The position numbers and the translations under genes are program-made. Positions 16,980 to 39,692 of a DNA stretch of 45,657 nt are shown piece by piece. The notes under the pieces were generated by a model, which ran no database searches, was not told where the DNA came from, and saw only the letters and a list, made by a program, of their open reading frames with translations. Each line of letters opens with the position of its first letter. The stretch's first letter is position 1. Source of the stretch: a virus; IMG/VR virus record IMGVR_UViG_3300045988_020044, positions 1-45,657 of that record; one strand, 5' to 3'.

Positions 16980-17756
16980 ATGCTTAGTCCAGAGTACTTG
17001 CGCAGAATCACAGAAGGCAGTGAACAGATTGCTGAGGAGTTACACCAGTATATTATATCTGAGATTGTATCTCGAATGATGGCAAGAATCGGAAGAGGTG
17101 AGGATTATATTCTGACCAATGCCGATGCGTGGAGAATCAGAACACTACAGGAATCTGGTGAACTGTTAGAAGACATTCTGGCAGAGCTGTCTAAATATAC
17201 CAAGCGGCAGCAGGAAGAACTAAAAGAGGCGTTTGAAGATGCCGGAATCACTGCCCTCGATTATGATGATAAGATATACAAGGCGGCAGGATTAAGCCCT
17301 GTACCGCTCGAACAGTCGCCAGCTATGATAAGACTCATGGAGCGAAATATGCTTGCAACCATGGGCGAGTGGAAGAACTTCACGAGAACAACTGCAAGTG
17401 CTGCTCAGGCGTTGTATATCAACCAGTGTGACCTTGCATACAATCATGTGATGACTGGGGCAGTTGGATATACGCAAGCGATTAGAGAAGCAGTTAACAA
17501 TGTTGTAAGCAATGGCGTTACGGTAACATATCCATCCGGCAGAAAAGATACAATTGAAACAGCGGTTGCACGCTCTGTCAGAACTGGCGTGGCACAGGCG
17601 TGCGCTGATATTCAGTTGGCAAGAATGAAAGAAATGGGATATGGCTTAGTGCTGACATCGGCGCATATAGGAAGCCGCCCAAGCCATGAAGTGTGGCAAG
17701 GGCAGGTATTCTCTATAGACTGGGAAAAATTAAAAGAAATCAAGCCTTATCTTTAA
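16980..17756 (+). CDS. head morphogenesis/minor capsid protein (SPP1 gp7 / Mu F-like), N-terminal fragment
   Basis: Ends ...SAHIGSRPSHEVWQGQVFS plus a 13-aa tail. The conserved continuation YPDF...CGVNCRHHF is found at 18719..19192. Confidence 0.75.
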   Translation: MLSPEYLRRITEGSEQIAEELHQYIISEIVSRMMARIGRGEDYILTNADAWRIRTLQESGELLEDILAELSKYTKRQQEELKEAFEDAGITALDYDDKIYKAAGLSPVPLEQSPAMIRLMERNMLATMGEWKNFTRTTASAAQALYINQCDLAYNHVMTGAVGYTQAIREAVNNVVSNGVTVTYPSGRKDTIETAVARSVRTGVAQACADIQLARMKEMGYGLVLTSAHIGSRPSHEVWQGQVFSIDWEKLKEIKPYL

Positions 17757-17907
17757 CAGAATCGAGATACAATGAAATTGCTTTATCGAGTATTTTGCTG
17801 ATAGGTATTCCAGTATCATCAGAATACGATTTTAATTTTTCATAAATTTCACGATCAATAGCATTTGATATTGCTACACGGTTTTTTAAACCTCTGTTAT
17901 TTGACAT
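17740..17907 (-). CDS. ribbon-helix-helix (CopG/Arc-like) DNA-binding protein (55 aa)
   Basis: GAAAGGAG SD. MSNNRGLKNRVAISNAIDREIYEKLKSYSDDTGIPISKILDKAISLYLDSVKDKA shows the strand-helix-helix pattern. Not in the ORF track (<60 aa). Confidence 0.65.
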   Translation of the reverse strand: MSNNRGLKNRVAISNAIDREIYEKLKSYSDDTGIPISKILDKAISLYLDSVKDKA

Positions 17908-17931
17908 TTTATTCAACTCCTTTCATACTAA

Positions 17932-18009
17932 AGTTTATCATAACTTTCAACTACTTGCAATTAAAATAAAATAATGATATAATTGAATGTAGATAAATGC
18001 AGTTGAAAG
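17932..18009. promoter_or_regulatory. back-to-back promoters sharing a palindromic TTGCAA -35, flanked by inverted repeat CTTTCAACT/AGTTGAAAG
   Basis: Plus strand: TTGCAA (17955-60), 17 nt, TGATATAAT (17975-83). Minus strand: TTGCAA, 17 nt, TAAACT (rc of 17932-37). Inverted repeat at 17944-52 and 18001-09. Confidence 0.6.
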
Positions 18010-18020
18010 GAGAAAGCACA

Positions 18021-18701
18021 ATGACTTTTGAAGAATTTTGTATTAAAAATGGTAAAAAAGAAAAACCACTTTCAGGGAAATCCTACAGATATTCTCACGG
18101 AATGGCAGAAACTCGATTATACAAAATATGGGCAGGCATGAAAATAAGAACATCTGAAAAGGCACAGCCTCATAACAAAGTGGCGTATTTTGATAGAGGA
18201 ATAACAGTATGTGATGAATGGAAAGAATTCAAACCTTTTTTATTATGGGCTTACACAAGCGGGTACGAAAAAGAACTTACAATAGACAGGATAGATGTTA
18301 ATAAAGGGTATTCTCCTGATAATTGTCGGTGGGTGCCATTAGAATGGCAAAACAACAACAAACAAAGCAGTTGGAAAATTAAATACCAAGGAGATACAAA
18401 AACCGTAGGTGAATGGGAACATTTCTTTGGCGTTCATCGTGAATATATAAGAAAAAGGCTTAATCATGGATGGACTTTTGACGAAATTGTAGAAAACATA
18501 AAAAATCCCACAACATTAAACAAGAACAATAAAAGTGGTATAAAGGGAGTTTTATTTGACAATAATCATTCAAAATGGAGAGCTTATATTTCTGTAGGCG
18601 GAAAACGCGTAGAAGATCGAGTTTTTAAAACCAAAGAAGAAGCAGTGATGGCAAGGAAACAAATGGAATTAAAATATTGGGGATATACAAATATTGAGTA
18701 A
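18021..18701 (+). CDS. HNH homing endonuclease with AP2 DNA-binding domain
   Basis: LTIDRIDVNKGYSPDNCRWV (HNH_3-like). GIKGVLFDNNHSKWRAYISVGGKRV...FKTKEEAVMARKQMELKYWG (AP2-like). Confidence 0.8.
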   Translation: MTFEEFCIKNGKKEKPLSGKSYRYSHGMAETRLYKIWAGMKIRTSEKAQPHNKVAYFDRGITVCDEWKEFKPFLLWAYTSGYEKELTIDRIDVNKGYSPDNCRWVPLEWQNNNKQSSWKIKYQGDTKTVGEWEHFFGVHREYIRKRLNHGWTFDEIVENIKNPTTLNKNNKSGIKGVLFDNNHSKWRAYISVGGKRVEDRVFKTKEEAVMARKQMELKYWGYTNIE

Positions 18702-18718
18702 TTATGGGGTGGCTATTT

Positions 18719-19192
18719 ATGAATAAAAAACATACTTATCCTGATTTTATTGAAAATTGTCATTATGGCGAAGCCGATGGAATATGTGGAGTAAATTGCA
18801 GGCATCATTTTTCGGTTTGGGTGGAAGGAATGCCGAATCCCTATGCGGAATTATCAGCGCAGGACAAAGCCGACAAAGGTAAACAGTACGAAAAAGAACA
18901 GCGGCAACGTACTTATGAACGGAGAATCCGCAAAACGAAGAGAGAAGTTCTCGGAATGCAAGCGGCGGTTAATAACTGCAAGGACGAACAGGCAAGATTT
19001 GCACTCCAACAAGACCTTGACCGGAAGTCTTATCTCTTACAGAAACAAAATGCTGCATACAAAGATTACTGCAAACAGAATGGCCTGAGGGAACTGCAAG
19101 ACCGCCTTATGATTGCGAAGTGGAACCGTCAGAACGCCGCAAAAGCCAGAGGAGCGGCAAAGAGATATAAAACAGCAAAGGGGATTGACTGA
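18719..19192 (+). CDS. head morphogenesis/minor capsid protein, C-terminal fragment
   Basis: MNKKHTYPDFIENCHYGEADGICGVNCRHHF. GGGGTGG SD lies 6 nt before ATG 18719 (an alternative ATG is at 18704). Confidence 0.7.
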   Translation: MNKKHTYPDFIENCHYGEADGICGVNCRHHFSVWVEGMPNPYAELSAQDKADKGKQYEKEQRQRTYERRIRKTKREVLGMQAAVNNCKDEQARFALQQDLDRKSYLLQKQNAAYKDYCKQNGLRELQDRLMIAKWNRQNAAKARGAAKRYKTAKGID

Positions 19193-19578
19193 TGGATAGA
19201 TGGGAATATTTCAATCCAAATCCTGTTAAGGATAAGAGAACAGGAGATTGCGTTGTCCGGGCAATATGTAAAGCAACTGGCTTCGACTGGGAAACAGTAT
19301 TCGCCGGATTAATGATACAGGCATGTACTCTGTCAGATATGCCGAGCGCAAATTATGTCTGGGGAGCGTACCTCTATAAGCATGGATACAGGCGAAAACT
19401 GATTGAACAGTCGGAGCGATATATTTATACAGTCAATGACTTTTGCGCAGATCATCCAACAGGCACATACATTCTCTGTATAGATGGTCATGTGGTGACA
19501 GTGCAAGAAGGCAAATATTTCGATACATGGAATAGCGGAAACGAAATACCGATTTATTATTGGGAAAAAAATGGATAA
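19192..19578 (+). CDS. hypothetical protein with a papain-like Cys...His...Asp pattern (putative cysteine peptidase/amidase)
   Basis: TGDCVVRAI ... IDGHVVTV ... YFDTW; assignment is tentative. Confidence 0.35.
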   Translation: MDRWEYFNPNPVKDKRTGDCVVRAICKATGFDWETVFAGLMIQACTLSDMPSANYVWGAYLYKHGYRRKLIEQSERYIYTVNDFCADHPTGTYILCIDGHVVTVQEGKYFDTWNSGNEIPIYYWEKNG

Positions 19579-19588
19579 ATATCCACTA

Positions 19589-20143
19589 TTATGTTTTATT
19601 GTATTTCCACACAAAACCTTTGTGAGTTCGACGTTCACCACGACAGCAACGACTGATGCTATCTTTTCGACCGTTTACGTGGTCTGCGGCATCTTCTGCG
19701 CAACTCCACTCAGCGATAAAATGATTGTTTAAGTCATATTGATAAACAACTTTTGCTCTTGGACTGTTTCCTCTCTTATAATTTCCATGAGGAGGGACAG
19801 AAGCGGAGCGCAATCCTGTATTTATTGCATGAAAAGTGTTTTCTTGTTTCGTGACCCATTCAAGATTATCAACAGTATTGTTTTTCTTGTTCCCGTCAAT
19901 ATGATTCACTACTTCTTTTTGTTCCACGTTCGGAATAAATGCCTCTGCAACAAGGCGGTGAACGAGATAGTTCTTACGTTTGTAATTAACAACAAGTGTT
20001 ACTCTATCGTAACCATCGTTTTCAAAAGGAGTCAAATACTTGCATCCTTTATTGTAATTTCTCCTTGCACTAATAATATTGCCAAGATTGCTTATTTTGT
20101 ATAATCCTTCATAACCGACAACATCTTTCCAAATTTCTTGCAT
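19589..20143 (-). CDS. free-standing HNH homing endonuclease (NUMOD4 plus HNH_3)
   Basis: EIWKDVVGYEGLYKISNLGNI and VNHIDGNKKNNTVDNLEWVT. Paralog of 31168..31710. Confidence 0.85.
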   Translation of the reverse strand: MQEIWKDVVGYEGLYKISNLGNIISARRNYNKGCKYLTPFENDGYDRVTLVVNYKRKNYLVHRLVAEAFIPNVEQKEVVNHIDGNKKNNTVDNLEWVTKQENTFHAINTGLRSASVPPHGNYKRGNSPRAKVVYQYDLNNHFIAEWSCAEDAADHVNGRKDSISRCCRGERRTHKGFVWKYNKT

Positions 20144-20286: not shown

Positions 20287-20592
20287 ATGCATATTATTGA
20301 AGCAATACAAACAATTCTATCAATTTGTGGTGGCATTTCTATCATAGGAGGGGCGGCAGCTGTAATCTTTAAGTGGATTACACCGGCATTCCGACTTAAT
20401 AAGCGAGTAGAGACACTGGAAGAGCATGACAAGCGAGATTACGAGAGTCTTCAGAGGATTGCAGAACGAGATTCATTAATTCTGGAAGTGTTATCAACCA
20501 TGCTGGACAGTCAGATCAGTGGGAATAATGTGGAGGAATTAAAAAAAACAAAACAGAAGCTTACAAATTATCTTGCACAGAATCAACGTTAA
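20287..20592 (+). CDS. N-terminal-TM, coiled-coil protein (BhlA/holin-like architecture)
   Basis: ILSICGGISIIGGAAAVIF TM segment, then a charged helical region. Confidence 0.45.
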   Translation: MHIIEAIQTILSICGGISIIGGAAAVIFKWITPAFRLNKRVETLEEHDKRDYESLQRIAERDSLILEVLSTMLDSQISGNNVEELKKTKQKLTNYLAQNQR

Positions 20593-20615
20593 TTGCATTA
20601 ATAAGGGGTATGCTC

Positions 20616-20816
20616 ATGAAGTTATATGTATTCACTAAGAAAGATATAGACAGGTTCTTGTTAGAGTGTAATTTTACGCCGGACGAAGAAAGACTGTTCC
20701 GGCTGAGATGTAAAGAATATACGCTTGAATACTGTGCTGAACAGATGAATGTGAGCATATCTACGGCGAAACGATTGAGCCGCCGGGTAAATAATAAAAT
20801 AATTAAAGTATGCTGA
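20616..20816 (+). CDS. sigma-70 region-4-like HTH protein (candidate late-gene activator)
   Basis: TPDEERLFRLRCKEYTLEYCAEQMNVSISTAKRLSRRVNNKI resembles sigma r4/LuxR-type HTHs. Confidence 0.55.
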   Translation: MKLYVFTKKDIDRFLLECNFTPDEERLFRLRCKEYTLEYCAEQMNVSISTAKRLSRRVNNKIIKVC

Positions 20817-20837
20817 TACTTTTCAGATACTTATATG

Positions 20838-20870
20838 GGTCTTAGACGAACTGTCTAAGGCTCTTTTTTT
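20838..20870 (+). terminator. rho-independent terminator
   Basis: Stem CTTAGAC/GTCTAAG (20841-47 and 20853-59) followed by a T7 run at 20864-70. Confidence 0.8.
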
Positions 20871-20891: not shown

Positions 20892-20924
20892 AAGTCATAG
20901 AATAAGTCATAGAATAAGTCATAG
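20892..20924 (+). repeat. tandem 12-mer AAGTCATAGAAT x2.75, abutting the SD of the next gene
   Basis: Read directly; copies start at 20892, 20904 and 20916. Confidence 0.9.
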
Positions 20925-20936
20925 GAGGTGTACGAG

Positions 20937-21407
20937 ATGGCATTATATAATAATCCTTATCAATATAGTTTTGGTGTTCCGGGACAGATGAATCAATTTC
21001 AGCAACAGCCTGTCCAGATGCCAGCTCAACCAGTACAGCAACCACAACAGAACAATAATGGTATCCTGTGGGTATCTGGTGAAGTGGGTGCAAAATCCTA
21101 TCTGGTAGCACCCGGGACAAGTGTTTTACTAATGGACAGTGAAAGTGAAAAGTTCTACATAAAATCCACAGACGTTTCCGGTATGCCACAGCCGTTACGG
21201 ACGTTTGAATATCACGAGGTAGGCACTCAGATGCCGCCTAAACAGCCTGCTCAGAACATGGACAGTAAATATGTTACTCGACAGGAATACGATGATTTGA
21301 AAGGCAAATACGAAGCTATCATAAACCGATTAAATTCTTTTTCTGAACCTGTTAGGGCTAATACCGTACAGGAATCAGCGGTCAAGGGAGGAAATGCAGA
21401 TGAGTAA
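20937..21407 (+). CDS. hypothetical protein with Q/P-rich N-terminus (156 aa)
   Basis: GGAGGTG SD; QQQPVQMPAQPVQQPQQNNNG followed by a globular region. Confidence 0.65.
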   Translation: MALYNNPYQYSFGVPGQMNQFQQQPVQMPAQPVQQPQQNNNGILWVSGEVGAKSYLVAPGTSVLLMDSESEKFYIKSTDVSGMPQPLRTFEYHEVGTQMPPKQPAQNMDSKYVTRQEYDDLKGKYEAIINRLNSFSEPVRANTVQESAVKGGNADE

Positions 21408-21621
21408 TCCATTATTCAATGCCCTCGGTGGTGGAATGCCACAGGGAAACGGACCAATGCAGATGATACAGCAGTTTATGCAGTTTAAGCAGAATTTTAA
21501 GGGAGACCCGAAAGCAGAAGTTGAGAAGATGTTACAGTCTGGGAAGATTTCCCAACAACAGCTTAATCAGGTTCAGCAGATGGCAGGACAGTTCCAAAGC
21601 CTGCTGAAAGGAATGAAATAG
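21400..21621 (+). CDS. small Q-rich hypothetical protein (73 aa)
   Basis: GGAGGA SD; MSNPLFNALGGGMPQGNGPMQMIQQFMQF... Confidence 0.6.
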   Translation: MSNPLFNALGGGMPQGNGPMQMIQQFMQFKQNFKGDPKAEVEKMLQSGKISQQQLNQVQQMAGQFQSLLKGMK

Positions 21622-21673
21622 TACATTACAATCTGGCCAGATTGATGTAAATACACAAAAAGGAGATTATATT

Positions 21674-22453
21674 ATGGATGGAAATTATAGCTTAGCAGAT
21701 ATTGCCGCTGCTACTGGAAATAGTAGAAATAATGATGGCATGTTTGGTGGAGATGGTAGCTGGTGGATTATTGTTTTATTCATCTTTGCTTTCTTCGGAT
21801 GGGGAAATAATGGCTGGGGCAATAATGGAAACGGCGGCGGATATGCAGCCACAGCAGCTACTCAGGCAGATATTCAGAGAGGATTCGACAATTCTGCAGT
21901 GATCAGCAAGCTTGACGGAATCAATAACGGTCTCTGTGACGGATTCTATGCAGTGAATAACGGTATGCTTACCGGATTTAACGGAATCAACACCAATATC
22001 ATGCAGACTGGTTTTGGAATCCAGCAGGCAATCAATGCCGATACTGTAGCCAATATGCAGAACACAAATGCGCTCCAGGCACAGCTTGCGAACTGCTGTT
22101 GTGAAACCAGGGAAGCTATCCAGGGCGTAAATTACAATATGGCCACCAACACTTGTGCAATCCAGAACACCATGAACAGCAACACAAGAGACATTATTGA
22201 CAGCCAGAACGCTGGAACAAGAGCCATTCTTGATTATCTTTGCAATGAAAAGATTTCTAACCTGCAGGCTGAAAACAATGACCTTAGACGTGCTGCTTCT
22301 CAGGACCGCCAGAGCGCACTTCTCACAACTGCAATGGCTTCACAGACACAGCAGCTTATTAATGCGATTAATCCGGCACCGATTCCGGCATATCAGGTTC
22401 CTAACCCGAACACATATTACGGATGCGGATGCAACACTGGATGTAATTGCTGA
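21674..22453 (+). CDS. single-pass membrane protein, N/G/Q-rich with a Cys-rich C-terminus (259 aa)
   Basis: TM segment WWIIVLFIFAFFGW, GWGNNGWGNNGNGGG, CCC, and terminal YYGCGCNTGCNC. Confidence 0.65.
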   Translation: MDGNYSLADIAAATGNSRNNDGMFGGDGSWWIIVLFIFAFFGWGNNGWGNNGNGGGYAATAATQADIQRGFDNSAVISKLDGINNGLCDGFYAVNNGMLTGFNGINTNIMQTGFGIQQAINADTVANMQNTNALQAQLANCCCETREAIQGVNYNMATNTCAIQNTMNSNTRDIIDSQNAGTRAILDYLCNEKISNLQAENNDLRRAASQDRQSALLTTAMASQTQQLINAINPAPIPAYQVPNPNTYYGCGCNTGCNC

Positions 22454-22517
22454 TAACTTCATATCGAGAGTATCTTTCGATCGATTCGGATGTCGGCTTA
22501 TGCCGTATTACACATAG

Positions 22518-22541
22518 GGGCAGGCTAGAACCTGTCCTTTT
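22518..22541 (+). terminator. rho-independent terminator
   Basis: Stem GGGCAGG/CCTGTCC (one G-U pair), 6-nt loop, TTTT. Confidence 0.55.
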
Positions 22542-22563
22542 GTGATATGAAAGGAGTATTTTT

Positions 22564-22986
22564 ATGGCAGAATTTACAAATGTAGCTGCTCAGACTGTAG
22601 CAGCAAATGGAAACGTAGTATTTTCAAACGTGGCAGTTAAAGGTTCTAACTGCATTCAGCACAGAGAGGGAAGCGGAATCATCACCCTGAGAGGACTGAC
22701 TAACCAGTGCAAAGCGAGATTTTTCGTGGATTTTTCTGGTAATATCGCAATTCCAACAGGCGGTACTGTCGGAGCTATTTCTCTGGCTATTGCAATCTCT
22801 GGCGAGCCAGTACTATCCTCCCAGATGATTTCCACACCGGCAGCAGTAGACCAGTACAACAATGTGTCCACGGGCATTTATGTGGATGTACCTCGTGGAT
22901 GTTGCGTTAATATTGCAGTAGAGAACACAAGTGATCAGGCTATTTCTGTTGCGAATGCAAACATTGTTGTGACCAGAGAAGCGTAG
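22564..22986 (+). CDS. C1q/TNF-like jelly-roll protein resembling the BclA C-terminal domain (no collagen stalk)
   Basis: The alternating beta-strand pattern (VVFSNV...GIITLRG...FFVDFSGNIAIP...ISLAIAISGEPV...VNIAVENTS...ANIVVTREA) resembles BclA-CTD family members. Assignment is from memory. Confidence 0.4.
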   Translation: MAEFTNVAAQTVAANGNVVFSNVAVKGSNCIQHREGSGIITLRGLTNQCKARFFVDFSGNIAIPTGGTVGAISLAIAISGEPVLSSQMISTPAAVDQYNNVSTGIYVDVPRGCCVNIAVENTSDQAISVANANIVVTREA

Positions 22987-22997
22987 GAGGTGTGATT

Positions 22998-23552
22998 ATG
23001 AGAGACATTAAAGATTTATGCGCAAGAATTGAAGACGAACTGTCCAAAATCGCTGATAGTGGGCTGACCACTGGAAATCTGGAAATGACATACAAACTGA
23101 TTGATATGTACAAAGATATCAAGAACACGCAGTACTGGGATAAGAAAGCGGAGTATTACAACGCTGTCCTTGATGAAATGCGTAGCGGATACAATGACGA
23201 TTACAGCGAGCGCGGAAGAAAACGTGACAGCATAGGGAGATACAGCGCAAATGATGGCAGAATGATGCCGGATTACGACAGGGGCAATTCTTATGCCAGA
23301 CGGGGCGAACATTACGTCAGAGGGCATTACAGCCGTTCTGATGGACGAGACGCTTACGATGACTACATGACGCAGAAGCAAAGCTATCGTTCCGGCAAAT
23401 CTGAAGACTGTAAGAGAAAGATGCTTGCCGCTCTGGAAGAACATCTGGACGAACTTACAACAGAAATGAGCGATATGTCCAAGGATGCAGAGTGCCGGGA
23501 GGAACGCGATCTTGTCAAGAGATACGTAGAAAAACTCCGGGATATGCTCTAA
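22998..23552 (+). CDS. hypothetical protein with an R/D/Y/G-rich central region between helical ends (184 aa)
   Basis: GGAGGTG SD. The equally long antisense ORF 23016..23558 has no SD. Confidence 0.6.
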   Translation: MRDIKDLCARIEDELSKIADSGLTTGNLEMTYKLIDMYKDIKNTQYWDKKAEYYNAVLDEMRSGYNDDYSERGRKRDSIGRYSANDGRMMPDYDRGNSYARRGEHYVRGHYSRSDGRDAYDDYMTQKQSYRSGKSEDCKRKMLAALEEHLDELTTEMSDMSKDAECREERDLVKRYVEKLRDML

Positions 23553-23558
23553 AAACAC

Positions 23559-23598
23559 AAAAGTGGTAGAGAGGTAGTTAAAATAAATCTGTTATAAT
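23559..23598 (+). promoter_or_regulatory. putative late promoter, second copy of AAAAGTGGTAGAGAG plus extended -10 TGTTATAAT
   Basis: 15-mer at 23559-73; TATAAT at 23593-98. Confidence 0.55.
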
Positions 23599-23682
23599 GT
23601 AATTGTGCAGCAGGAAGCACAAGTAAAACGGTTGTTTTGACATTTTCGTTTTAATCCTCCTTTCTTTAATTTAGTAGCTGGT

Positions 23683-23731
23683 GCGCACGCTTTAATGGAA
23701 AGTTAAACAGGTTCGATTCCTGCCGTGCGTA
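23683..23731 (+). tRNA. truncated tRNA-like element lacking a D-arm (anticodon-like loop UGGAAAG)
   Basis: Acceptor GCGCACG/CGTGCGT, T-arm CAGG-TTCGATT-CCTG, and a single intervening hairpin TTTAA-TGGAAAG-TTAAA. Only about 49 nt. Confidence 0.3.
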
Positions 23732-23881
23732 TTTGCCGTCTGGCACGCAAGATGGCACACCTCCTTGATTAAGGTTTTTGTTATTCATACTTTTCTTTTA
23801 AAAAAAGTAATAAATATCCGAAACAACTCGTGGTAGGCATAACACGTTAAATACCTTGCTAACCCGGGAATCCGGGTTATG

Positions 23882-23950
23882 TGGAATGTACGTTAATGGT
23901 AGACTGACAGGGTCGCGCCCTGGGTTCCGGTTCGATTCCGGGCGTTCCGC
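23882..23950 (+). tRNA. aberrant tRNA-like element (anticodon position CGC, 2-nt variable region)
   Basis: Acceptor TGGAATG/CGTTCCG (two G-U pairs), T-arm TCCGG-TTCGATT-CCGGG, 3-bp D-stem, anticodon hairpin CAGG-GTCGCGC-CCTG. Confidence 0.35.
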
Positions 23951-24066
23951 TTATTTGCTCAGAATTATGCTGTCTGTTTGTAGGCGGTCTATGGTTCGGG
24001 TAAATTATCCCATGGGTAAAGGTTAACGCTTATCCTGTTAACTGCTGGACAGTTCGAAAAGTGCAG

Positions 24067-24139
24067 TGAAATATAGCGCAGTTGGTAGAGCAACATCCGC
24101 ATAGGGTGCGTGTCGGCGGTTCGATTCCGCCTATTTCAT
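24067..24139 (+). tRNA. tRNA with CAU anticodon (Met/Ile2-type) but G at position 33
   Basis: Acceptor TGAAATA/TATTTCA, D-arm GCGC-AGTTGGTA-GAGC, anticodon loop CGCATAG, T-arm GGCGG-TTCGATT-CCGCC. No encoded CCA. Confidence 0.65.
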
Positions 24140-24217
24140 TACCTTGCCAGTGGTCTAACTGGCTTAATCCATTTTACCTGCGGCGGCAGGTCAATAAACA
24201 CGACCAGGAGGATGTAT

Positions 24218-24929: not shown

Positions 24930-26099
24930 ATGGCAGCAAAAGCTAAGCTTATTATGAGTAATGATATTCAGGTCACAGCGCGTGAGATTGACTTTGTAAC
25001 CAGATTCGAAAGAAACTGGCAGCACTTACGTGATATTCTGGGCATCATGAGACCTATCAAAAAACAGCCGGGTGCTGTACTCAAGTCCAAATACGCAGAG
25101 GGTACTTTGCAGAGCGGAAATGTTGGTGAGGGTGAGGAAATCCCTTACAGCAAGTTTACTGTAAAAGAAAAGACCTATGCGGAAATGACTATTGAAAAGT
25201 ACGCAAAGGCTGTATCTATCGAAGCAATCAAGGATCACGGTTATGAGAACGCTGTTCAGATGACTGATGATGAATTCCTTTTCCAGCTTCAGACTGACGT
25301 TACCGGCAGATTCTATGATTATCTGAAAACCGGTACGCTTACTTCCACAGAAACAACATTCCAGATGGCTCTGGCAATGGCTAAAGGCCGTGTAGAAAAC
25401 AAATTCAAACAGATGCACAGAAATGTGACTGGCGTTGTTGGATTTGTGAACATTCTGGACGTATATGAATATCTTGGAGCGGCTGAGATCACTATTCAGA
25501 ACCAGTTCGGCTTCCAGTACATGAAAGATTTCATGGGATTCAATACTATCTTCCTGTTATCCGACAGCGAAATCCCGAGAGGACAGGTTATTGCTACCCC
25601 TGTCGAGAACATCGTACTTTACTATGTTGACCCGAACGAATCTGACTTTGCAAGAGCAGGTCTGGTGTATACCGTATCTGGCGAGACAAACCTGATCGGA
25701 TTCCACACTCAGGGCAACTATCACACAGCAGTGTCCGAAGCGTTCGCAGTTATGGGACTTACTCTTTTTGCGGAGTACATTGACGCAATCGCAGTAATCA
25801 CCATTGATGAGACACCAACACTTGGTACTCTGACAGTAACATCTGCGGCAGGAACAGTAACTGGTGATACAAAAATCACTGTAAATCCGGCTAAGGAAAA
25901 CTCCAACAACGTATACAAATACAAAGTTGCAACAGACGCAGTAACTGTTGGATATGGACAGAACCTCAGGAACTGGACTTCTTGGGACGGAAAAGCTGAC
26001 ATCAAGGCGGCAACCGGACAGAAGATCACAGTAGTTGAGTGCGATGGAACATACAAGGCACTGAATGCCGGAAGTGCGAGCGTAACAGCAAAATCATAA
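24930..26099 (+). CDS. major capsid protein with C-terminal Ig-like domain
   Basis: 389 aa after the scaffold gene. C-terminus TLGTLTVTSAAGTVTGDTKITV...ITVVECDG is Ig-like. Confidence 0.8.
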   Translation: MAAKAKLIMSNDIQVTAREIDFVTRFERNWQHLRDILGIMRPIKKQPGAVLKSKYAEGTLQSGNVGEGEEIPYSKFTVKEKTYAEMTIEKYAKAVSIEAIKDHGYENAVQMTDDEFLFQLQTDVTGRFYDYLKTGTLTSTETTFQMALAMAKGRVENKFKQMHRNVTGVVGFVNILDVYEYLGAAEITIQNQFGFQYMKDFMGFNTIFLLSDSEIPRGQVIATPVENIVLYYVDPNESDFARAGLVYTVSGETNLIGFHTQGNYHTAVSEAFAVMGLTLFAEYIDAIAVITIDETPTLGTLTVTSAAGTVTGDTKITVNPAKENSNNVYKYKVATDAVTVGYGQNLRNWTSWDGKADIKAATGQKITVVECDGTYKALNAGSASVTAKS

Positions 26100-34509: not shown

Positions 34510-34887
34510 ATGGCACAGGAACAGTTTAAGATTGACGGGGTCATTATAAAGGCCCCTGACACATATAAACCAGTGTTCGCAACTACATCAACAGAAAGCT
34601 CTAAGAGAAGTCAGGATCTTGTTATGCACAACACTCCAATGGGAACTATCGCCGGATATGACATGGAATGGGGCGAGCTTAAATGGGGAGAGATTGCAAC
34701 GATTCTCAACTCTATGATTAATAAAAGCCAGTTCACTTTTCATCACAAAGACCCTCGGACACCCGGCAAATGGATTGATGAAACGTTCTATGCATCTAAT
34801 TTCAACATGGCAGCGCAAACGCTCAAGGATAACGAAGAACGATGGACGGGATTAACTATTAATGTAAGGAGTGTTCGACCGGTATGA
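34510..34887 (+). CDS. putative distal tail protein (small, 125 aa)
   Basis: Position directly after the tape measure gene. Confidence 0.45.
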   Translation: MAQEQFKIDGVIIKAPDTYKPVFATTSTESSKRSQDLVMHNTPMGTIAGYDMEWGELKWGEIATILNSMINKSQFTFHHKDPRTPGKWIDETFYASNFNMAAQTLKDNEERWTGLTINVRSVRPV

Positions 34888-37800
34888 TTAATGTTACAAA
34901 TCAGTTAAAAACAGAATCCCTCTTAAATAGTAACTATTATGTTACGGCGAATGCGGTGCTGCGTGATGGGACAACTTTAAACCTGGGAAAAGAAGACTTC
35001 TACCTTGACGGAAACGGCATTGTGGATTCTTCTGATTCCGGTGATTTCCCGATAGGTGTAGCCATTGAAAAGACAGCAACATTGGCACTGGTCAATGATG
35101 ATGATAGATTCTCTGACTACAACTTTGCCGGGGCACAGTTCACCCTATTTTTAAATTTGCAACTATCTGATAGATTAGAAACCATTCGCCGCGGCACATT
35201 CATTGTATCAAAAAAACCTGCCACGTCCGATGAGATTAATCTCACTTTGCTGGACTATATGAGCAAGGCAGAGACAGGATACAATACAAACCTTGTTTTC
35301 CCATGCTCTGTCAGAGAGGTTTTAGAAGATGCCTGTCAGCAGACCGGGATTGTGTTAGGTGACGCAACATTTAAAAACGCAGACTATCAGGTGCAGAAGA
35401 AGCCCGAGAACACCACTTTTAGAGCAGTAATTGGTATGGTTGCAGCTTTGGCAGGTGGCAACGCTCGCATTGACGAAAACGATAATTTGCGAATTATCAC
35501 TTTTGACGATAATACGGATACTATTACATTAGAAACAGTTCCATGGTATGACATTAATGGAAACACTATCCTTGACATTGATAGTAACGAGATTGAGACA
35601 ATTCTCGAGCGAAAAGGATTTAATCTAAATGCTATCAGGAACCTTACCTATGATGTTGACGATGCGGTTGTTACTGGGGTTAAATATACAGATAATGAGA
35701 CGGAATACAAGTACGGTACAGACGGATATGTCATCACGATTGACAACAAGCTTCTGAGTGGCAATGAACAGACGGGTGTTGACCTGATCGGAAAAGAACT
35801 TGTCGGTATGAGATTAAGACCATTCTCTTGTGACAGCATAGCAATCGGATACGCCACATTTGGAGATAGAATTACATTTTCCGACATTAAAGGCAATATT
35901 TACTATTCATATCTGACAGATGTAGACTTCGCATTCTCTGGCAGTACAAGCTTCTCTTGTAATGCAAAGAGCATGGAAGACATCGATGCTGACTATCCAG
36001 ACAGCATACAGGTCGAGGTCGACAACATAAAGAAAGATTCCGAGAAAAAGATTACTGCCTATGATGCAAAATTAAAGCAGATGAACGAACTGGCGGCTAA
36101 CACCCTTGGATTCTACTATACGGAAGAAATTCAGGCAGACGGCTCGACGGTATCATATCGTCACGACAAGCCTACGCTTGCTGATTCTAAAGTAATCTAC
36201 AAGACGGGTGTTGATGGATTCTTCTTGTCAGTAGACGGAGGCCGGACTTGGAAAGCCGGATTTGACAGCAACGGTGATGCAGTGCTGAACATTCTGTATG
36301 CTATCGGCATTCAGTCTGACTGGATTAACACTAGGGGATTCACGGCAAAAGACAATGACGGCAATATTACATTCCGCATTGACGCAGAGACAGGGGCTGT
36401 CAATCTTAATGCTACAGAACTCACGATCAAAGGAAAAACGCCTGAGAACGTGGCAAATGCCGAGGTTGAGAAGTTTATTACAGAGGTATATTCTCCGCAG
36501 ATTAAAGTTCTTCAGGAGCAGATTGACGGACAGATAGAAGCATTCTTTGGAGACTATGTTCCTGATGGCAATAATGAACCGGCGTCCACTTGGACAGATG
36601 ACGCAACTAAAGAAAAGCACTTAGGCGACCTGTTTTATATTGTAAACAACGAAGAATATGGTGGACAGGCTTACAGATATGCAAAGATTAATGGCGAATA
36701 CAAGTGGGATTATGTAAAAGACACTGCGGTGGTCAAAGCTCTGGCTGATGCGGCGCAGGCACAAAACACGGCAAATGCAAAGAAGAGAATTTTCGGAGCA
36801 GAGCCGGTTCCACCTTACGATATTGACGATTTATGGGTTCAGGGAAAGACAGGGGACATTCTTAAGTGTCAAAAGGCAAAGGCAGAGGGCGCAAGCTATG
36901 ACGCCGATGACTGGGTGAGAGCATCTAAGTATACAGATGATTCAGCAGTTACAACCTTTATCAAGGGCGTTTTTGCTGATACGATTGAAAGCCTCCAAGA
37001 GCAACTTGATGGCAAGATTCAGACCTGGAGCCAGGATACAGACCCGGCGCTTGAATGGACAGAAACAGAAGAGATTCCGTGGACAGATGTTGATGGCAAT
37101 TCCATTCTGGACGTAGGCGGAAATGAGATTTTAATTGTTTGGGAAAAAGGTAAATATATCCACAAAGGAGACCTTTGGCAGAATACCGCCAATAACGCTA
37201 ACACGCGCTGGCGGTGGGATGGAAATGAATGGGTTGAACAGAAAGCCCCAGATTATCTGTTTGATAAGATTGATGGGAAAGCAGCAGTTTATTTCGAACA
37301 GCCTAAGCCACCATACAACATGGGAGATTTCTGGATCACATCAAAAGCAGATGGCGAAGCTTCTATCAAAACAGCGGTTAGAAGCCGGTCGGATGGCGCA
37401 TTTACTGACACTGACTGGATTGATTTCAAATATGCCGATAAAACTGACATTGACAATGCGGTAAAAGAGTATGATACAAGCCTTGGACAGGATGAAGTAT
37501 TTAATAAGCTGACGAACGGCGGTGAAGACCAGGGAATTTATATACAGGACAAGAAACTGTATATCAATGCAAATTACATCCTTGCAGGCGTTTTGGCAGG
37601 CAAATTTATCAATGCGAAAGGCATAAAGGTTATTGATAAGGACAACCAAACAACCTTATACATTGATGATAACGGGAAAGTTCATATTCTTGCCACCGAA
37701 TTTTCTTTGCAGGGCAAGAGCGTATCCGATATTGCCACGGATGCGGCTACGGAAGAAGCGAAGAAATATAAGACTCTAAATGTAACATTATCGAATGAGT

Positions 37801-39692
37801 ATCAGGGTATTCCAACGGATGCGGAAGGTAATTACACAGCATTCCCTGAGTGCAAAACGACGGTGACGGCGTTGTATGGCGATGAGAATGTTACAAACAG
37901 CGCAACTATAACGTTTACTGCCGGAAGCGGGGTTACGGGTTCAAAATCAGGAGCAACATATACAGTAACGGCACTTTCATCTGATACAGGAATTATTACG
38001 GTGTCAGTTTCTTATAATAATCTCTCTGTTGAGAAGCAGTTTGCAATTGCAAAACAGAAACAGGGTATTCAGGGATTACAGGGTATTCAGGGAATAAATG
38101 GAAAAGACGGAATAAGTGGAAAAGACGGTCAGGACGGAAAGACATCTTATTTTCATATCAAATATAGTTCTGTTGCAAACCCGACTTCTTCCAGTCAGAT
38201 GAGTGAAACGCCAAGTACCTATATTGGCACTTATGTGGACTATACAGAAGCGGATAGCGACGACCCTGGCAAATACACATGGAGTCGATTTGAAGGCAAG
38301 GACGGGGCACAAGGAATCCCTGGAACAAATGGAGATAACGGGCAAACATCTTATCTCCATATTGCTTATGCGACCAGTTCTGACGGAAAAACAGGTTTCT
38401 CAGTGTCTGATAGTGCAGGCAAGACTTACATCGGGCAGTATACCGATTTTAAAGAGAATGATTCTACAAATCCAAGTGATTACAGCTGGACGAAGATAAA
38501 AGGCGATACTGGAAACGGTGTATCTGCAATTGTGCAACATTACCTTGCTTCTTCAAGTTCATCAGGTGTGACAACATCCACATCAGGTTGGACGGAATCT
38601 GTGCAGACACCAACATCATCTAAAAGATATTTGTGGAATTATCAGACAACCACATACACGGACGGAACGAGTGTGAACACTACTCCACATGTTATCGGTG
38701 TATACGGAGAAAAAGGCGATGATGGCAAAGACGCGTCAGATATGACCCAGTTGGATATTTTTAATAAATTGACCAACAACGGGGAAACACAGGGGCTATA
38801 TCTTTATAACAACAAGGTGTATCTGAATGCCTCGTATATTGACACCGGGTATCTGGCTGGATGGGGAGTTGGATATAAAAAGCTTTCAGCAAATGGCACG
38901 TATGGAGAAGTAACGCTAGACGCTTCAGCTGGGGAAATCTATTCAGAGACGAATACAGGAATATATGTGCCGGGGTACGGGACGTTGTATGGAACGCGAA
39001 TCAGAGGAATCAATCTTTATACAGGAACCGTACACGCAAGCTCAGCCTCGTTTAATACTAGCGTTTCGGCGAGCAGCGTTTCAGCGAGCAGTGTTTCAGC
39101 ATCAGGAAAAGTTAAAGCAGGCACACACGTAGAAGCCAGTGGTCATTTCTATAGCATCGGAACGGGAACGGACCTTGCAGATGCTTCTATCAGAGGGAAG
39201 TTGAAAGTAAGCGGGACAAAATCAAGATCAGTTTCGACGGTAGACTATGATGAGCAACTCTTTTACTGCTATGAAATGTCAACCCCATTCTTTGGAGATA
39301 TCGGTGAATCTGTAATATCGGATGACGGGACTTGTATGATTGACATAGATGATATCTTTCAGGAATCTGCGAATGTCGGCATTAAATATTATGTGTTCTT
39401 GCAAAGAGAAGGAGAGGGCGACTGCTGGATAGCTGAGAAAGAGCAGAATTATTTTGTTGTAAAAGGAACTCCGGGACTTAAATTTTCGTTCGAAATCAAA
39501 GCAAGACAAGCTGAATATGAGCATATGCGATTTACTGACCCGGGAGATACGGCTTATACAGACGCAAGAGATATAGAAATCTCGGAACCAGATTATGAAT
39601 CAGAAGAAACAGAGGTCTCGGAACCAGATTATGAATCAGAACTTACTAACGACAGATTAAGCATTATCAATCAGATGGAGGTAATATCATGA
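34884..39692 (+). CDS. tail-associated/receptor-binding protein (Tal-like N-terminus, collagen-like G-X-Y runs, duplicated beta-rich modules)
   Basis: 1602 aa after Dit. G-X-Y x9 at 38064-38144. Duplicated TSY(F/L)HI(K/A)Y...Y(T/S)W modules. Confidence 0.75.
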   Translation: MINVTNQLKTESLLNSNYYVTANAVLRDGTTLNLGKEDFYLDGNGIVDSSDSGDFPIGVAIEKTATLALVNDDDRFSDYNFAGAQFTLFLNLQLSDRLETIRRGTFIVSKKPATSDEINLTLLDYMSKAETGYNTNLVFPCSVREVLEDACQQTGIVLGDATFKNADYQVQKKPENTTFRAVIGMVAALAGGNARIDENDNLRIITFDDNTDTITLETVPWYDINGNTILDIDSNEIETILERKGFNLNAIRNLTYDVDDAVVTGVKYTDNETEYKYGTDGYVITIDNKLLSGNEQTGVDLIGKELVGMRLRPFSCDSIAIGYATFGDRITFSDIKGNIYYSYLTDVDFAFSGSTSFSCNAKSMEDIDADYPDSIQVEVDNIKKDSEKKITAYDAKLKQMNELAANTLGFYYTEEIQADGSTVSYRHDKPTLADSKVIYKTGVDGFFLSVDGGRTWKAGFDSNGDAVLNILYAIGIQSDWINTRGFTAKDNDGNITFRIDAETGAVNLNATELTIKGKTPENVANAEVEKFITEVYSPQIKVLQEQIDGQIEAFFGDYVPDGNNEPASTWTDDATKEKHLGDLFYIVNNEEYGGQAYRYAKINGEYKWDYVKDTAVVKALADAAQAQNTANAKKRIFGAEPVPPYDIDDLWVQGKTGDILKCQKAKAEGASYDADDWVRASKYTDDSAVTTFIKGVFADTIESLQEQLDGKIQTWSQDTDPALEWTETEEIPWTDVDGNSILDVGGNEILIVWEKGKYIHKGDLWQNTANNANTRWRWDGNEWVEQKAPDYLFDKIDGKAAVYFEQPKPPYNMGDFWITSKADGEASIKTAVRSRSDGAFTDTDWIDFKYADKTDIDNAVKEYDTSLGQDEVFNKLTNGGEDQGIYIQDKKLYINANYILAGVLAGKFINAKGIKVIDKDNQTTLYIDDNGKVHILATEFSLQGKSVSDIATDAATEEAKKYKTLNVTLSNEYQGIPTDAEGNYTAFPECKTTVTALYGDENVTNSATITFTAGSGVTGSKSGATYTVTALSSDTGIITVSVSYNNLSVEKQFAIAKQKQGIQGLQGIQGINGKDGISGKDGQDGKTSYFHIKYSSVANPTSSSQMSETPSTYIGTYVDYTEADSDDPGKYTWSRFEGKDGAQGIPGTNGDNGQTSYLHIAYATSSDGKTGFSVSDSAGKTYIGQYTDFKENDSTNPSDYSWTKIKGDTGNGVSAIVQHYLASSSSSGVTTSTSGWTESVQTPTSSKRYLWNYQTTTYTDGTSVNTTPHVIGVYGEKGDDGKDASDMTQLDIFNKLTNNGETQGLYLYNNKVYLNASYIDTGYLAGWGVGYKKLSANGTYGEVTLDASAGEIYSETNTGIYVPGYGTLYGTRIRGINLYTGTVHASSASFNTSVSASSVSASSVSASGKVKAGTHVEASGHFYSIGTGTDLADASIRGKLKVSGTKSRSVSTVDYDEQLFYCYEMSTPFFGDIGESVISDDGTCMIDIDDIFQESANVGIKYYVFLQREGEGDCWIAEKEQNYFVVKGTPGLKFSFEIKARQAEYEHMRFTDPGDTAYTDARDIEISEPDYESEETEVSEPDYESELTNDRLSIINQMEVIS

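Follow-up and report, generated by a model that had tools for sequence, protein, structure and literature searches.

The IMG/VR virus record IMGVR_UViG_3300045988_020044 comprises 45,657 nucleotides (here called the window, meaning the whole stretch of DNA that was analysed) and has the appearance of a complete temperate siphophage of ~45.6 kb. Between its minor capsid (gp7-like) gene and its scaffold gene lie five open reading frames (ORFs) on the + strand, P1 to P5, which together occupy positions 20937-23552. A preliminary description, made from the sequence alone, had singled them out as a self-contained block of compositionally unusual proteins. We find that P1-P5 make up an accessory operon, both conserved and horizontally mobile, that is carried by gut phages and prophages and to which three further genes, encoding a protein termed c0, a small membrane protein (TM101 in the window) and a helix-turn-helix (HTH) protein, are usually linked. 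The cassette is real, widespread, well-defined and uncharacterised, and among the gene sets of the human and animal gut virome that still lack an explanation it is one of the commoner. The functional reading first placed on it is only partly supported.

Gene content and selection

As had been described, all five ORFs carry Shine-Dalgarno motifs (GGAGG- or AAGGAG-type, 6-10 nt 5' of the start); the end of P1 overlaps the start of P2 by 14 nt. Each product matches one function-less PHROG family of its own: phrog_21718 for P1 (E 5e-39), phrog_22984 for P2 (E 5e-27), phrog_16490 for P3 (E 1e-58), phrog_20016 for P4 (E 5e-61) and phrog_28802 for P5 (E 3e-63). Ratios of nonsynonymous to synonymous substitution (dN/dS), computed among ~160 near-identical IMG/VR relatives, are listed in Table 1 together with those of two head genes for comparison. 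All cassette genes are under strong purifying selection, in the same range as the capsid genes. Because they have PHROG families of their own and dN/dS values of 0.018-0.072, P1-P5 are true genes and not chance ORFs. The view that they are unrelated orphans or chance products can draw on the absence of functional annotation from all libraries scanned; its probability is negligible, being ruled out by collinearity in at least 56 loci, PHROG matches at E <=5e-27 and dN/dS far below 1. The GC content of the block (0.43-0.46) is not atypical when set against the rest of the genome (0.36-0.47).

The absence of any recognisable standard function, remarked upon at the outset, was borne out on wider searching. 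Pfam and NCBIfam scans of P1-P5 returned no match, nor did annotated PHROGs; PADLOC returned none for P1-P5, TM101, the HTH protein or c0; and family profiles of P1, P3, P4, P5 and c0 found nothing significant among PDB sequences. No description of the cassette was found in PHROG annotations or the searchable literature. In short, no library, solved structure or paper gives it a function, and it matches none of the known families of decoration, defence, spanin or holin proteins.

Table 1. Features of the window, with selection on the cassette, linked and comparison genes
Feature	Positions	Strand	Description	dN/dS
Minor capsid protein 2 gene, N part	16980-17756		PF06152	
Small ORF in minor capsid gene	17740-17916	-	part of 0.95-kb insert	
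HNH/AP2-like ORF	17997-18701		part of 0.95-kb insert	
Minor capsid protein 2 gene, C part	18704-19192		PF06152	
c0	19192-19578	+	128 aa; linked gene outside the 20937-23552 block	0.09
Homing endonuclease	19589-20143	-	HNH_3/NUMOD4/NUMOD1	
TM101	20287-20592	+	101 aa; N-terminal hydrophobic segment, charged and probably helical tail	0.044
HTH protein	20610-20816	+	68 aa; sigma-70 region-4-like	0.031
Intrinsic terminator	20837-20863 + T7 (to 20870)	+	12-pair stem; closes upstream unit	
AAGTCATAGAAT tandem repeat	20892-20924 (element to 20927)	+	12-mer, 2.8 copies, 100% identity (Tandem Repeats Finder)	
P1	20937-21407	+	156 aa	0.064
P2	21394-21621	+	75 aa	0.057
P3	21674-22453	+	259 aa	0.072
P3-P4 hairpin	22516-22540, then U-run (to 22545)	+	-19.2 kcal/mol, z = -5.0, then UUUU	
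P4	22564-22986	+	140 aa	0.033
P5	22998-23552	+	184 aa counted from ATG	0.018
P5-scaffold gap	23553-24217		660-nt non-coding stretch	
tRNA-Met	24066-24140		inside P5-scaffold gap	
Scaffold			comparison gene	0.029
Major capsid protein	24930-26099		comparison gene	0.048
Tail protein	34884-39692		1,602 aa	
CHAP endolysin	40539-41969			
Tyrosine integrase and XRE repressor	beyond CHAP endolysin	opposite		

Extent and conservation of the cassette

The distribution of the cassette was followed in 80 loci fetched from a one-genome-per-species collection by means of the P4 alignment, to which six phage records were added, giving 86 loci that were examined by iterative profile searches. The 80 loci derive from Lachnospiraceae, Oscillospiraceae, Acutalibacteraceae and Selenomonadales, as well as from some Bacteroidales bins. 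P1 was found in 77 loci, P2 in 61, P3 in 84, P4 in 83 and P5 in 80, and the strict order P1-P2-P3-P4-P5 is kept in 56 of the 86, exceptions being due mostly to contig ends or to failure to detect the small P2.

Clustering of the flanking ORFs revealed that the cassette is larger than five genes, with the conserved unit beginning at 19192. The original idea of an insulated, self-contained unit is supported, the block being absent from the closest cultured relatives and placed elsewhere in the genomes of other phages; its limitation to five genes is not. Homologues of c0 lie directly upstream of P1 in 32 loci, and those of the HTH protein (~70 aa) adjoin the cassette in 38, that of Butyrivibrio virus Ceridwen among them. 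A small membrane protein also recurs beside the cassette, with loci other than those holding TM101 carrying different ones (cluster 3) in the same position. The downstream neighbour is a ~105-aa protein in 16 loci, or a ~105-aa HExxH protein of M78/SprT-like type in 13. Ceridwen mirrors the window, with the order membrane protein, HTH protein, terminator, c0, P1, P2, P3, P4, inserted endonuclease and P5.

Conservation within the immediate lineage, for which at least ~600 IMG/VR contigs are available, is closer still. Among the best 80 relatives (capsid-protein identity >=98%), 62 carry c0, TM101, the HTH protein and P1-P5, the rest mostly being cut at contig ends; TM101 taken singly is present in at least 62. 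Three of ~66 informative near-identical relatives have internal deletions or replacements in the cassette: window positions 21191-22662 are deleted in locus L187, P1-P3 are replaced in L242, and P1-P2 have given way to reverse-strand genes in L200. An invariant core of the lineage, which had been named beforehand as an observation that would count against the original interpretation, was found only in this restricted sense, the block being near-invariant within its immediate lineage alone. Constraint like that of a capsid gene in a set that a phage of this type can nevertheless dispense with points to a strong, condition-dependent benefit.

Insertions are frequent in and around the cassette. 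In several close relatives (L173 4411-5049, L200 4861-5502, L242 5138-6895, L187 830-2163), reverse-strand genes have been inserted between the HTH gene and P1. They encode an HTH protein of 58-62 aa that resembles an antitoxin, together with proteins of 71-252 aa, and in L200 and L242 they have taken the place of part of the cassette. In other lineages, genes for PAPS-reductase-like and radical-SAM proteins, a C5 DNA methyltransferase and HNH/AP2-type (homing) endonucleases have entered the cassette itself, between P3 and P4 (L090, L091, L094, L095, L129), between P2 and P3 (L110, L123, L134) or between P4 and P5 (L002). In the window, the homing endonuclease gene between c0 and TM101 parts c0 from the remainder of the cassette; it is a recent insertion, since most near-identical relatives are without it.

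P4, a BclA/C1q-like jelly roll

The preliminary description had likened the 140-aa protein to the C1q-like C-terminal domain of BclA without its collagen stalk, and this proved well-founded. An AlphaFold model of the P4 monomer, computed from an alignment of 87 homologues, is all beta, with a predicted local distance difference test (pLDDT) score of 88.8 and a predicted template modelling score of 0.81. The top Foldseek matches in the PDB are F-BclA and BclA C-terminal domains, ExsFA, BxpB and ExsF (E 3e-6 to 4e-5, template modelling (TM) score 0.65-0.77), followed to E 1e-4 by EDA-A1, 4-1BBL, C1q-like heads and some phage fibre knobs. For the entries 9h38, 7r1m, 8d02, 1wck, 1rj7 and 4qql taken together, the matches are at E 3e-6 to 1e-4 and TM 0.65-0.77. 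In BFVD, its best matches are stand-alone 130-142-aa proteins of gut sipho-, myo- and podophages (TM 0.82-0.87). No Pfam family is matched by the window copy at E <=0.1, and no PDB sequence by the family profile; Pfam BclA_C (PF18573) is matched by 7 of 62 aligned members of the family, with a best E of 5e-7. On the predicted structure, P4 is by fold a stand-alone jelly roll of the BclA_C/C1q-tumour necrosis factor (TNF) type, and it falls in the BclA_C family by way of its relatives.

The family is large, amounting to at least 7,977 clusters at 90% identity in a search of 5.8 billion proteins, and it has a firm core of conserved residues. C113-C114, T91-P92, E3, N60, G80 and N100 are invariant, and H33, R34 and G38 (in the motif HR.GSG) and A93-A94-V95 are nearly so. 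Neither collagen GXX repeats nor an N-terminal extension were found in the 140 residues of P4, and there is no collagen match anywhere in the block. Without a collagen stalk or a targeting motif, P4 is not a BclA-type glycoprotein.

The jelly-roll fold is shared, at TM 0.70-0.77, with the BclA C-terminal domain and ExsFA/BxpB (ExsF) of the exosporium of the Bacillus cereus group (PF18573; PDB 1wck, 7r1m, 8d02, 9h38, 9h3d). P4 resembles ExsFA/BxpB in standing alone as a single domain (~140-165 aa), in lacking both collagen stalk and signal peptide, and in being made in the cytoplasm beside Cys-rich and low-complexity partners. Unlike these proteins, it is phage-borne and only 10-16% identical to those of solved structure, and its partners are not homologous to ExsY, CotY or BclA. 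A second resemblance, of design only, is to the type II TNF ligands (EDA-A1, 4-1BBL) and the C1q family, in which anchor, stalk and jelly-roll head follow one another in the same order. The ligands differ from the cassette in that here the anchor and stalk (P3) and the head (P4) are separate proteins, the stalk being N/Q-rich and probably helical rather than collagen.

P3, a membrane-type protein with a cysteine-rich tail

From its N terminus, P3 consists of an acidic tail of ~31 aa, a hydrophobic segment, a G/N/W linker, an N/Q-rich and probably helical region, and a Cys/Gly-rich tail. Hydrophobicity peaks at residue ~31, and the N-tail is net acidic (0.9 K/R vs 2.9 D/E). A near-invariant CCC lies in the N/Q-rich region, ASQ and P.P(AY) motifs are also present, and the proteins contain 12 Cys at the median. 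The features quoted for P3 in the preliminary description, namely GWGNNGWGNNGNGGG, the CCC triplet and the YYGCGCNTGCNC end, were confirmed in the translation, as were the Q/P-rich N terminus of P1 and the R/D/Y/G core of P5. The family comprises 2,136 clusters at 50% identity, all of them stand-alone proteins of 220-300 aa. Pfam scans of each member of the P3 alignment gave scattered matches, with no family in more than four members. Against the PDB, the P3 profile found only sub-threshold matches (E 0.13-1.4); these are more than 50 chains of influenza HA2, whose fusion peptide and helix A align with the Gly-rich hydrophobic segment of P3 and the stretch that follows it. This sub-threshold similarity explains the 'spike protein/glycoprotein' labels borne by homologues of P3 in crAss phages, and we regard the likeness of P3 to HA2 as one of analogy.

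Homologues of P3 extend well beyond the cassette. They occur in Clostridium perfringens phages (with P1), in bajarodcaudo and Dulem viruses, in many crAss-like phages, in Bacteroides phage C3_41T2LP and in two viruses assigned to the Methanomassiliicoccales (L168, L169). A recurring neighbourhood surrounds these genes in the two archaeal viruses and in loci L084, L167 and L253-L256, which represent the crAss-like phages, C3_41T2LP and Dulem virus 40. The usual order in the crAss-like phages and Dulem virus 40 begins with a membrane protein of holin-/LysB-like type, after which come a protein that is sigma-like or has an R/D/Y-rich tail, P3, a ~140-aa beta-rich Cys protein and lastly a ~170-aa protein whose N-terminal half is beta-rich and whose C-terminal half is charged and probably helical. 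The partners of crAss-like P3 match P5, P4 and P1 in size and composition only. Homology of the crAss partners to P1, P4, P5 or c0 found no support in profile alignments, which gave <=1.5%. In crAss cr116_1, bajarodcaudo virus 5 and C. perfringens phage HMD-PC1, the proposal that P3 is followed by a diverged P4 was rejected, hhalign probabilities being <=5%.

P1, P2, P5 and the linked genes

The remaining products are notable chiefly for their composition. P1 has a Q/P/Y-rich N terminus, a conserved core that is probably beta-rich, with the motif WV.G...AK.Y.VAPG..V.L.DS....Y.KS.D..G.P, and a charged, probably helical C-terminal stretch. P2 contains 18% Q, 10% N and 9.5% M. In P5, which is rich in E, R, D, G, S, K and Y, conserved and probably helical ends surround a low-complexity R/D/Y/G/S core. 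Neither P1 nor P5 gave a consistent Pfam or PDB-sequence match, scans of the individual members being scattered with no family in more than four. P1, P2, P4 and P5 have a low maximum hydropathy, and no hydrophobic segment able to act as a signal peptide was found in any of them.

The protein c0 is the candidate enzyme of the set. Its conserved residues are D19-C20, H100, D111, W113 and S115, of which D19-C20, H100 and D111 are invariant or nearly so, and its family numbers at least 7,963 clusters at 90% identity in the same 5.8-billion-protein search. In an AlphaFold model (pLDDT 93.3), C20 starts a helix (residues 20-29), and H100 and D111 lie on strands, a predicted arrangement like that of papain, with Cys at the N terminus of a helix and His and Asp on strands. 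c0 has no Pfam or PDB-sequence match, and Foldseek gave nothing at E <=0.001, the best plausible match being Josephin-2 (E 0.3, probability 0.69, TMq 0.53); for want of a match at that threshold, we do not call it a peptidase. On the model, c0 may hypothetically be put forward as a candidate papain-like Cys-His-Asp enzyme.

The HTH protein matches Pfam Sigma70_r4 (E 0.007) and TIGR02937 (5e-5), both under curated cut-offs, and PHROG 1190, 'RNA polymerase sigma factor', at 1.8e-6. At 68 aa it is too short to include sigma region 2. Judged by its sequence, it is likely to be a regulator linked to the cassette. TM101 shows a weak match (E 1.4e-4) to a gene of crAss cr116_1 annotated as 'lysis regulatory protein/holin'.

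Transcriptional elements

Folding and repeat analysis confirmed both the strong terminator and the 12-mer repeat that had been noted upstream of P1. The terminator has a folding energy of -15.6 kcal/mol (z = -5.3), and none of 200 shuffled sequences folds equally well; an annotated terminator stands at the equivalent place in Ceridwen, behind its HTH gene. The AAGTCATAGAAT repeat overlaps a -10-like element and the Shine-Dalgarno motif of P1. Among relatives that are otherwise >=96% identical (loci L004-L083), its copy number ranges from 0 to at least 4, and each extra copy brings another TAGAAT, a -10-like hexamer. The conserved element 5' of P1 is the -10-like AAAAATATAAT, which in repeat-free relatives lies ~20 nt ahead of the ribosome-binding site. 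The repeat itself was considered as a regulatory site and rejected, on account of its variation from 0 to at least 4 copies in near-identical phages and of the motif not being enriched elsewhere in the genome.

A second terminator, proposed between P3 and P4, was recovered as a hairpin with a U-run, although a simple terminator scan did not call it; it is possibly a partial terminator. In other lineages the gap between P3 and P4 is only ~10-15 nt or is filled by inserted genes. For the late-promoter motif suggested at 23559, a scan for sigma-70-like promoters found no counterpart. As to a transcription unit of their own, neither a -35 element nor a downstream terminator was identified for P1-P5. 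In the window, P1-P5 sit behind their own terminator with a -10-like box upstream, and their insulation is only partly shown.

Genomic slots, mobility and hosts

Two slots recur. In at least 13 of the 86 loci the cassette has, as in the window, the gp7-like minor capsid gene on one side and the scaffold gene on the other; in ~25 it lies just downstream of an endolysin gene (GH25, amidase or CHAP), at a distance of 0.4-3 kb. An opposite-strand integrase gene follows immediately downstream in 10 loci. Even among phages with homologous capsids the position is not fixed, Dulem virus 35 and MT835516 holding the cassette beside the head genes, and MT835551, Dulem virus 33 and Ceridwen 13-17 kb away from them. 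No cassette component was found in Flavonifractor phage Chenonceau (60% capsid-protein identity) or Dorea phage DO134P1 (54%). In these two phages and in Ceridwen the slot between gp7 and scaffold is filled by other small genes, contrary to the supposition that gp7 is normally followed directly by the scaffold gene. Presence and absence among related phages is thus confirmed, with the closest cultured relatives being without the cassette and deletion variants also existing.

This bears on the proposal that the block is a moron cassette, of which the variable presence among relatives was upheld and an atypical GC content was not. Out of three testable features of morons, the cassette displays one, namely presence or absence among relatives. 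Like the toxin genes of Streptococcus pyogenes prophages and lambda bor and lom, morons situated at the junction of lysin gene and attachment site, it is partly insulated, variably present and found in accessory slots. It departs from them in consisting of five to eight conserved genes of typical GC content, in spanning host families and in occurring also in a phage for which no integrase is annotated. That phage, Ceridwen, was isolated lytically, infects B. fibrisolvens and has the whole cassette, which weakens the case for a purely lysogenic role. At least four isolate strains carry integrated copies, the lysogens including Lachnospira intestinalis CLA-AA-H89B, Lachnospiraceae JLR.KK009, Butyrivibrio sp. 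INlla21 and Anaerovibrio lipolyticus DSM 3074. Most of the confirmed hosts belong to the Clostridia, bacteria with one membrane.

It had also been suggested that the block acts on the spore surface, that is, that in a lysogen the cassette adds BclA/ExsFA-like, cross-linkable proteins to the coat or exosporium of the host spore. Exosporium proteins are indeed the best structural matches of P4; like the soluble cassette products they have no signal peptides, and they are assembled in the cytoplasm; most hosts are Clostridia; and the lysin-integrase junction is a classical moron slot. The Cys-rich, Q-rich and R/D/Y/G-rich products recall the spore proteins ExsY/CotY, GerQ and CotG/ExsB, respectively. 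Set against this are the integrated copies in Butyrivibrio and A. lipolyticus, neither of which is known to sporulate, the lytic isolation of Ceridwen on B. fibrisolvens, and the homologues of P3 in crAss-like and other Bacteroides phages and in archaeal viruses; in addition, no sporulation promoter or regulator was identified and the GC content is not atypical. The suggestion is weakened by these observations, and conversion of spores by the cassette now appears very improbable.

The slot downstream of the endolysin gene raises the alternative of an accessory role in lysis or egress, in which P3 and TM101 would be membrane-active proteins, similar to i-spanins, T4 holin T or class I fusion proteins, that help to rupture the cytoplasmic membrane or to time its rupture under the regulation of their soluble partners. 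Besides the ~25 loci mentioned, crAss-like phages and Dulem virus 40 have genes with a holin, pholin or LysB-like annotation at no more than ~2 kb from their P3 homologue, that of cr1_1 being situated between a pholin and an L,D-transpeptidase-like lysin, and the weak match of TM101 to a crAss 'lysis regulatory protein/holin' is of the same kind. P3 itself has a Gly-rich hydrophobic segment, after which comes a region that is rich in N/Q and probably helical, and it shows the sub-threshold similarity to HA2 already described. In layout it resembles i-spanin Rz, T4 holin T and HA2, a single hydrophobic segment near the N terminus being joined by a long, probably helical stretch and by conserved Cys, and it is often encoded near lysis genes; it differs from all three in that there is no significant similarity and in that its CCC triplet and Cys/Gly tail have no counterpart in them. 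Moreover, the CHAP endolysin of the window is 17 kb away. A spanin would be superfluous in hosts that have a single membrane, a lipoprotein partner is missing, and the block contains no ORF with a signal peptide or lipobox such as a two-component spanin (Rz/Rz1) would have. Lysis proteins are usually small, diverse and fast-evolving, in contrast to the highly conserved P4 and c0, and neither a BclA-like trimer nor Q-rich proteins have a known role in lysis. We consider an accessory role in lysis or egress quite unlikely.

Possible function of the cassette

The reading that we prefer, held tentatively and at somewhat less than an even chance, is that the products constitute a stalk-and-knob complex, anchored to the cytoplasmic membrane of the cell that makes it, and that this complex acts at the membrane of infected or lysogenic cells, for instance in excluding incoming DNA or in the control of lysis. 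Counted in its favour are the conserved-order unit, its accessory mobility and own upstream elements, the P3 anchor, the P4 knob and the presence of Cys in both proteins. P3 would insert in the cytoplasmic membrane of the producing cell as a trimeric coiled-coil stalk, with its acidic N-tail outside and its long C-terminal part in the cytoplasm, alongside the other products. There, the Cys/Gly tail of P3 would dock on P4 trimers bearing the invariant Cys-Cys pair, through metal or thiol chemistry. ExsF trimers are known to dock an N-terminal peptide of a partner protein (PDB 9h3d, which is among the Foldseek matches of P4). The result would be the architecture seen in type II TNF ligands, or where BclA sits on ExsFA, divided over two polypeptides. 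The Q/N-rich P1 and P2 and the R/D/Y/G-rich P5 might serve as multivalent partners or as a matrix, and c0 might process or cross-link one of these. Firmicutes without Dsb systems reportedly avoid cysteine in proteins exported by the Sec pathway, and it is for this reason, together with the lack of export signals in the partners, that assembly in the cytoplasm is favoured. The pay-off, which is the weakest step of the scheme, would be control by the complex of what crosses the membrane, for example incoming phage DNA, or of the timing of lysis; the complex would not build the virion.

Several considerations weigh against this membrane-tethered complex. The link between P3 and P4 is one that we infer, and the coiled-coil and trimeric state of P3 is suggested by its composition and by the sub-threshold similarity to HA2. 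The K/R counts on either side of the P3 anchor are equal, making its topology ambiguous. The papain-like assignment of c0 is without statistical support, and c0 was detected inside the fetched flanks in just 45 of the 86 loci. C1q, TNF and BclA domains normally end up outside cells or on particles. Conservation of this degree across host families would be unusual for proteins of exclusion or lysis, and a self-contained structural role would fit it equally well. Finally, the operon lies within late, co-oriented gene blocks and, in the window, inside the head module.

The last of these points leads to the alternative that the products are associated with the virion, which is a serious possibility, if on the unlikely side. 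P3 could be a trimeric fibre with P4 as its knob, comparable with fibritin or a head or side fibre, or it could be an internal or ejected protein whose hydrophobic segment enters the target membrane. In either case P1, P2 and P5 might act as assembly or attachment factors, and cross-linking through Cys might take place when the phage of an anaerobe meets oxygen. Co-orientation with the late genes, residence inside the head module in the window and in at least 13 other loci, strong Shine-Dalgarno motifs and purifying selection equal to that on capsid genes are all consistent with a virion protein. So too are the structural genes that surround the P3 region of cr52_1, the lack of an annotated integrase in Ceridwen, and the spread of P3 homologues over phages of Bacillota, Bacteroidota and archaea, which suggests a role independent of the host envelope. 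The P4 fold also recurs at fibre tips, as in the short tail fibre CBD of cyanophage A-1(L) (8ke9), the knob of the phi812 central spike (9eul) and a variant of fibritin, and it shares with these their late-gene context; however, fibre knobs are C-terminal domains of a long fibre, whereas P4 is a free 140-aa protein encoded beside P3 with its membrane-type anchor.

Other observations are harder to accommodate in a virion. The 16-residue aromatic and aliphatic segment of P3 would be unusual in a soluble fibre. The cassette changes slots and moves among phages with unrelated head and tail modules, to each of which a decoration protein would need to fit, and there are phages with homologous capsids that are without it, as well as deletion variants. 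P1-P5 resemble no known structural family in Pfam, PHROG or PDB profiles; in particular, none of them matched the profile of a known decoration, scaffold or fibre family, and the matches to head-decoration proteins that had been specified in advance as speaking against a new system did not appear. The capsid protein, furthermore, already has its own C-terminal SbsC_C Ig-like domain.

A broader and rather doubtful proposal is that of a P3-centred module of the gut virome, of which P1-P5 would be the form found in phages of Bacillota, with crAss-like phages, other Bacteroides phages and viruses of Methanomassiliicoccales using non-homologous partners of matching composition. The products would assemble in the cytoplasm as a cross-linkable, exosporium-like structure on membranes or particles and be released by lysis, in the way that the exosporium is built in the mother cell. 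If true, viruses of anaerobes would have a new type of extracellular or envelope structure that suits their transmission through the gut. More generally, if the P3-centred modules of crAss-like and archaeal viruses are the same system as the cassette, its function spans viruses of three host phyla.

Most of the probability we place on readings in which undescribed proteins perform phage functions of known kinds, the membrane-tethered complex among them. The question is open to experiment, as there is a defined gene set, a structural handle in the P4 knob and the P3 stalk, a candidate enzyme and regulator, and a cultured phage, Ceridwen.

Other features of the window

The gene order of the window, from its left end, is a primase/VapE-type replication gene, packaging and head genes, tail genes, the CHAP endolysin gene and the integrase and repressor genes. 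The head region contains probable terminase, portal and minor capsid protein 2 genes, followed by scaffold and capsid. The minor capsid protein 2 gene is split by a 0.95-kb insert that holds an HNH/AP2-like ORF and a small reverse-strand ORF (Table 1), and it is in one piece in relatives such as L098. Rfam called no group I intron here, and the split represents either an intron or a split gene that yields two polypeptides. The major capsid protein includes the S-layer SbsC_C domain (PF18316) at residues 307-387 (E 7e-16) and therefore already has a built-in surface domain. The 1,602-aa tail protein, with weak collagen-repeat and BppU-like C-terminal matches, is presumably a receptor-binding fibre or baseplate protein.

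Relatives vary in the non-coding stretch between P5 and the scaffold gene. Besides a tRNA-Met gene, it contains two degenerate tRNA-like sequences with GGTTCGATTCC T-arms, at ~23700-23740 and 23881-23950. Both are sub-threshold, the latter scoring 21.8 bits against the tRNA-Sec model, and they may be decayed tRNA genes.

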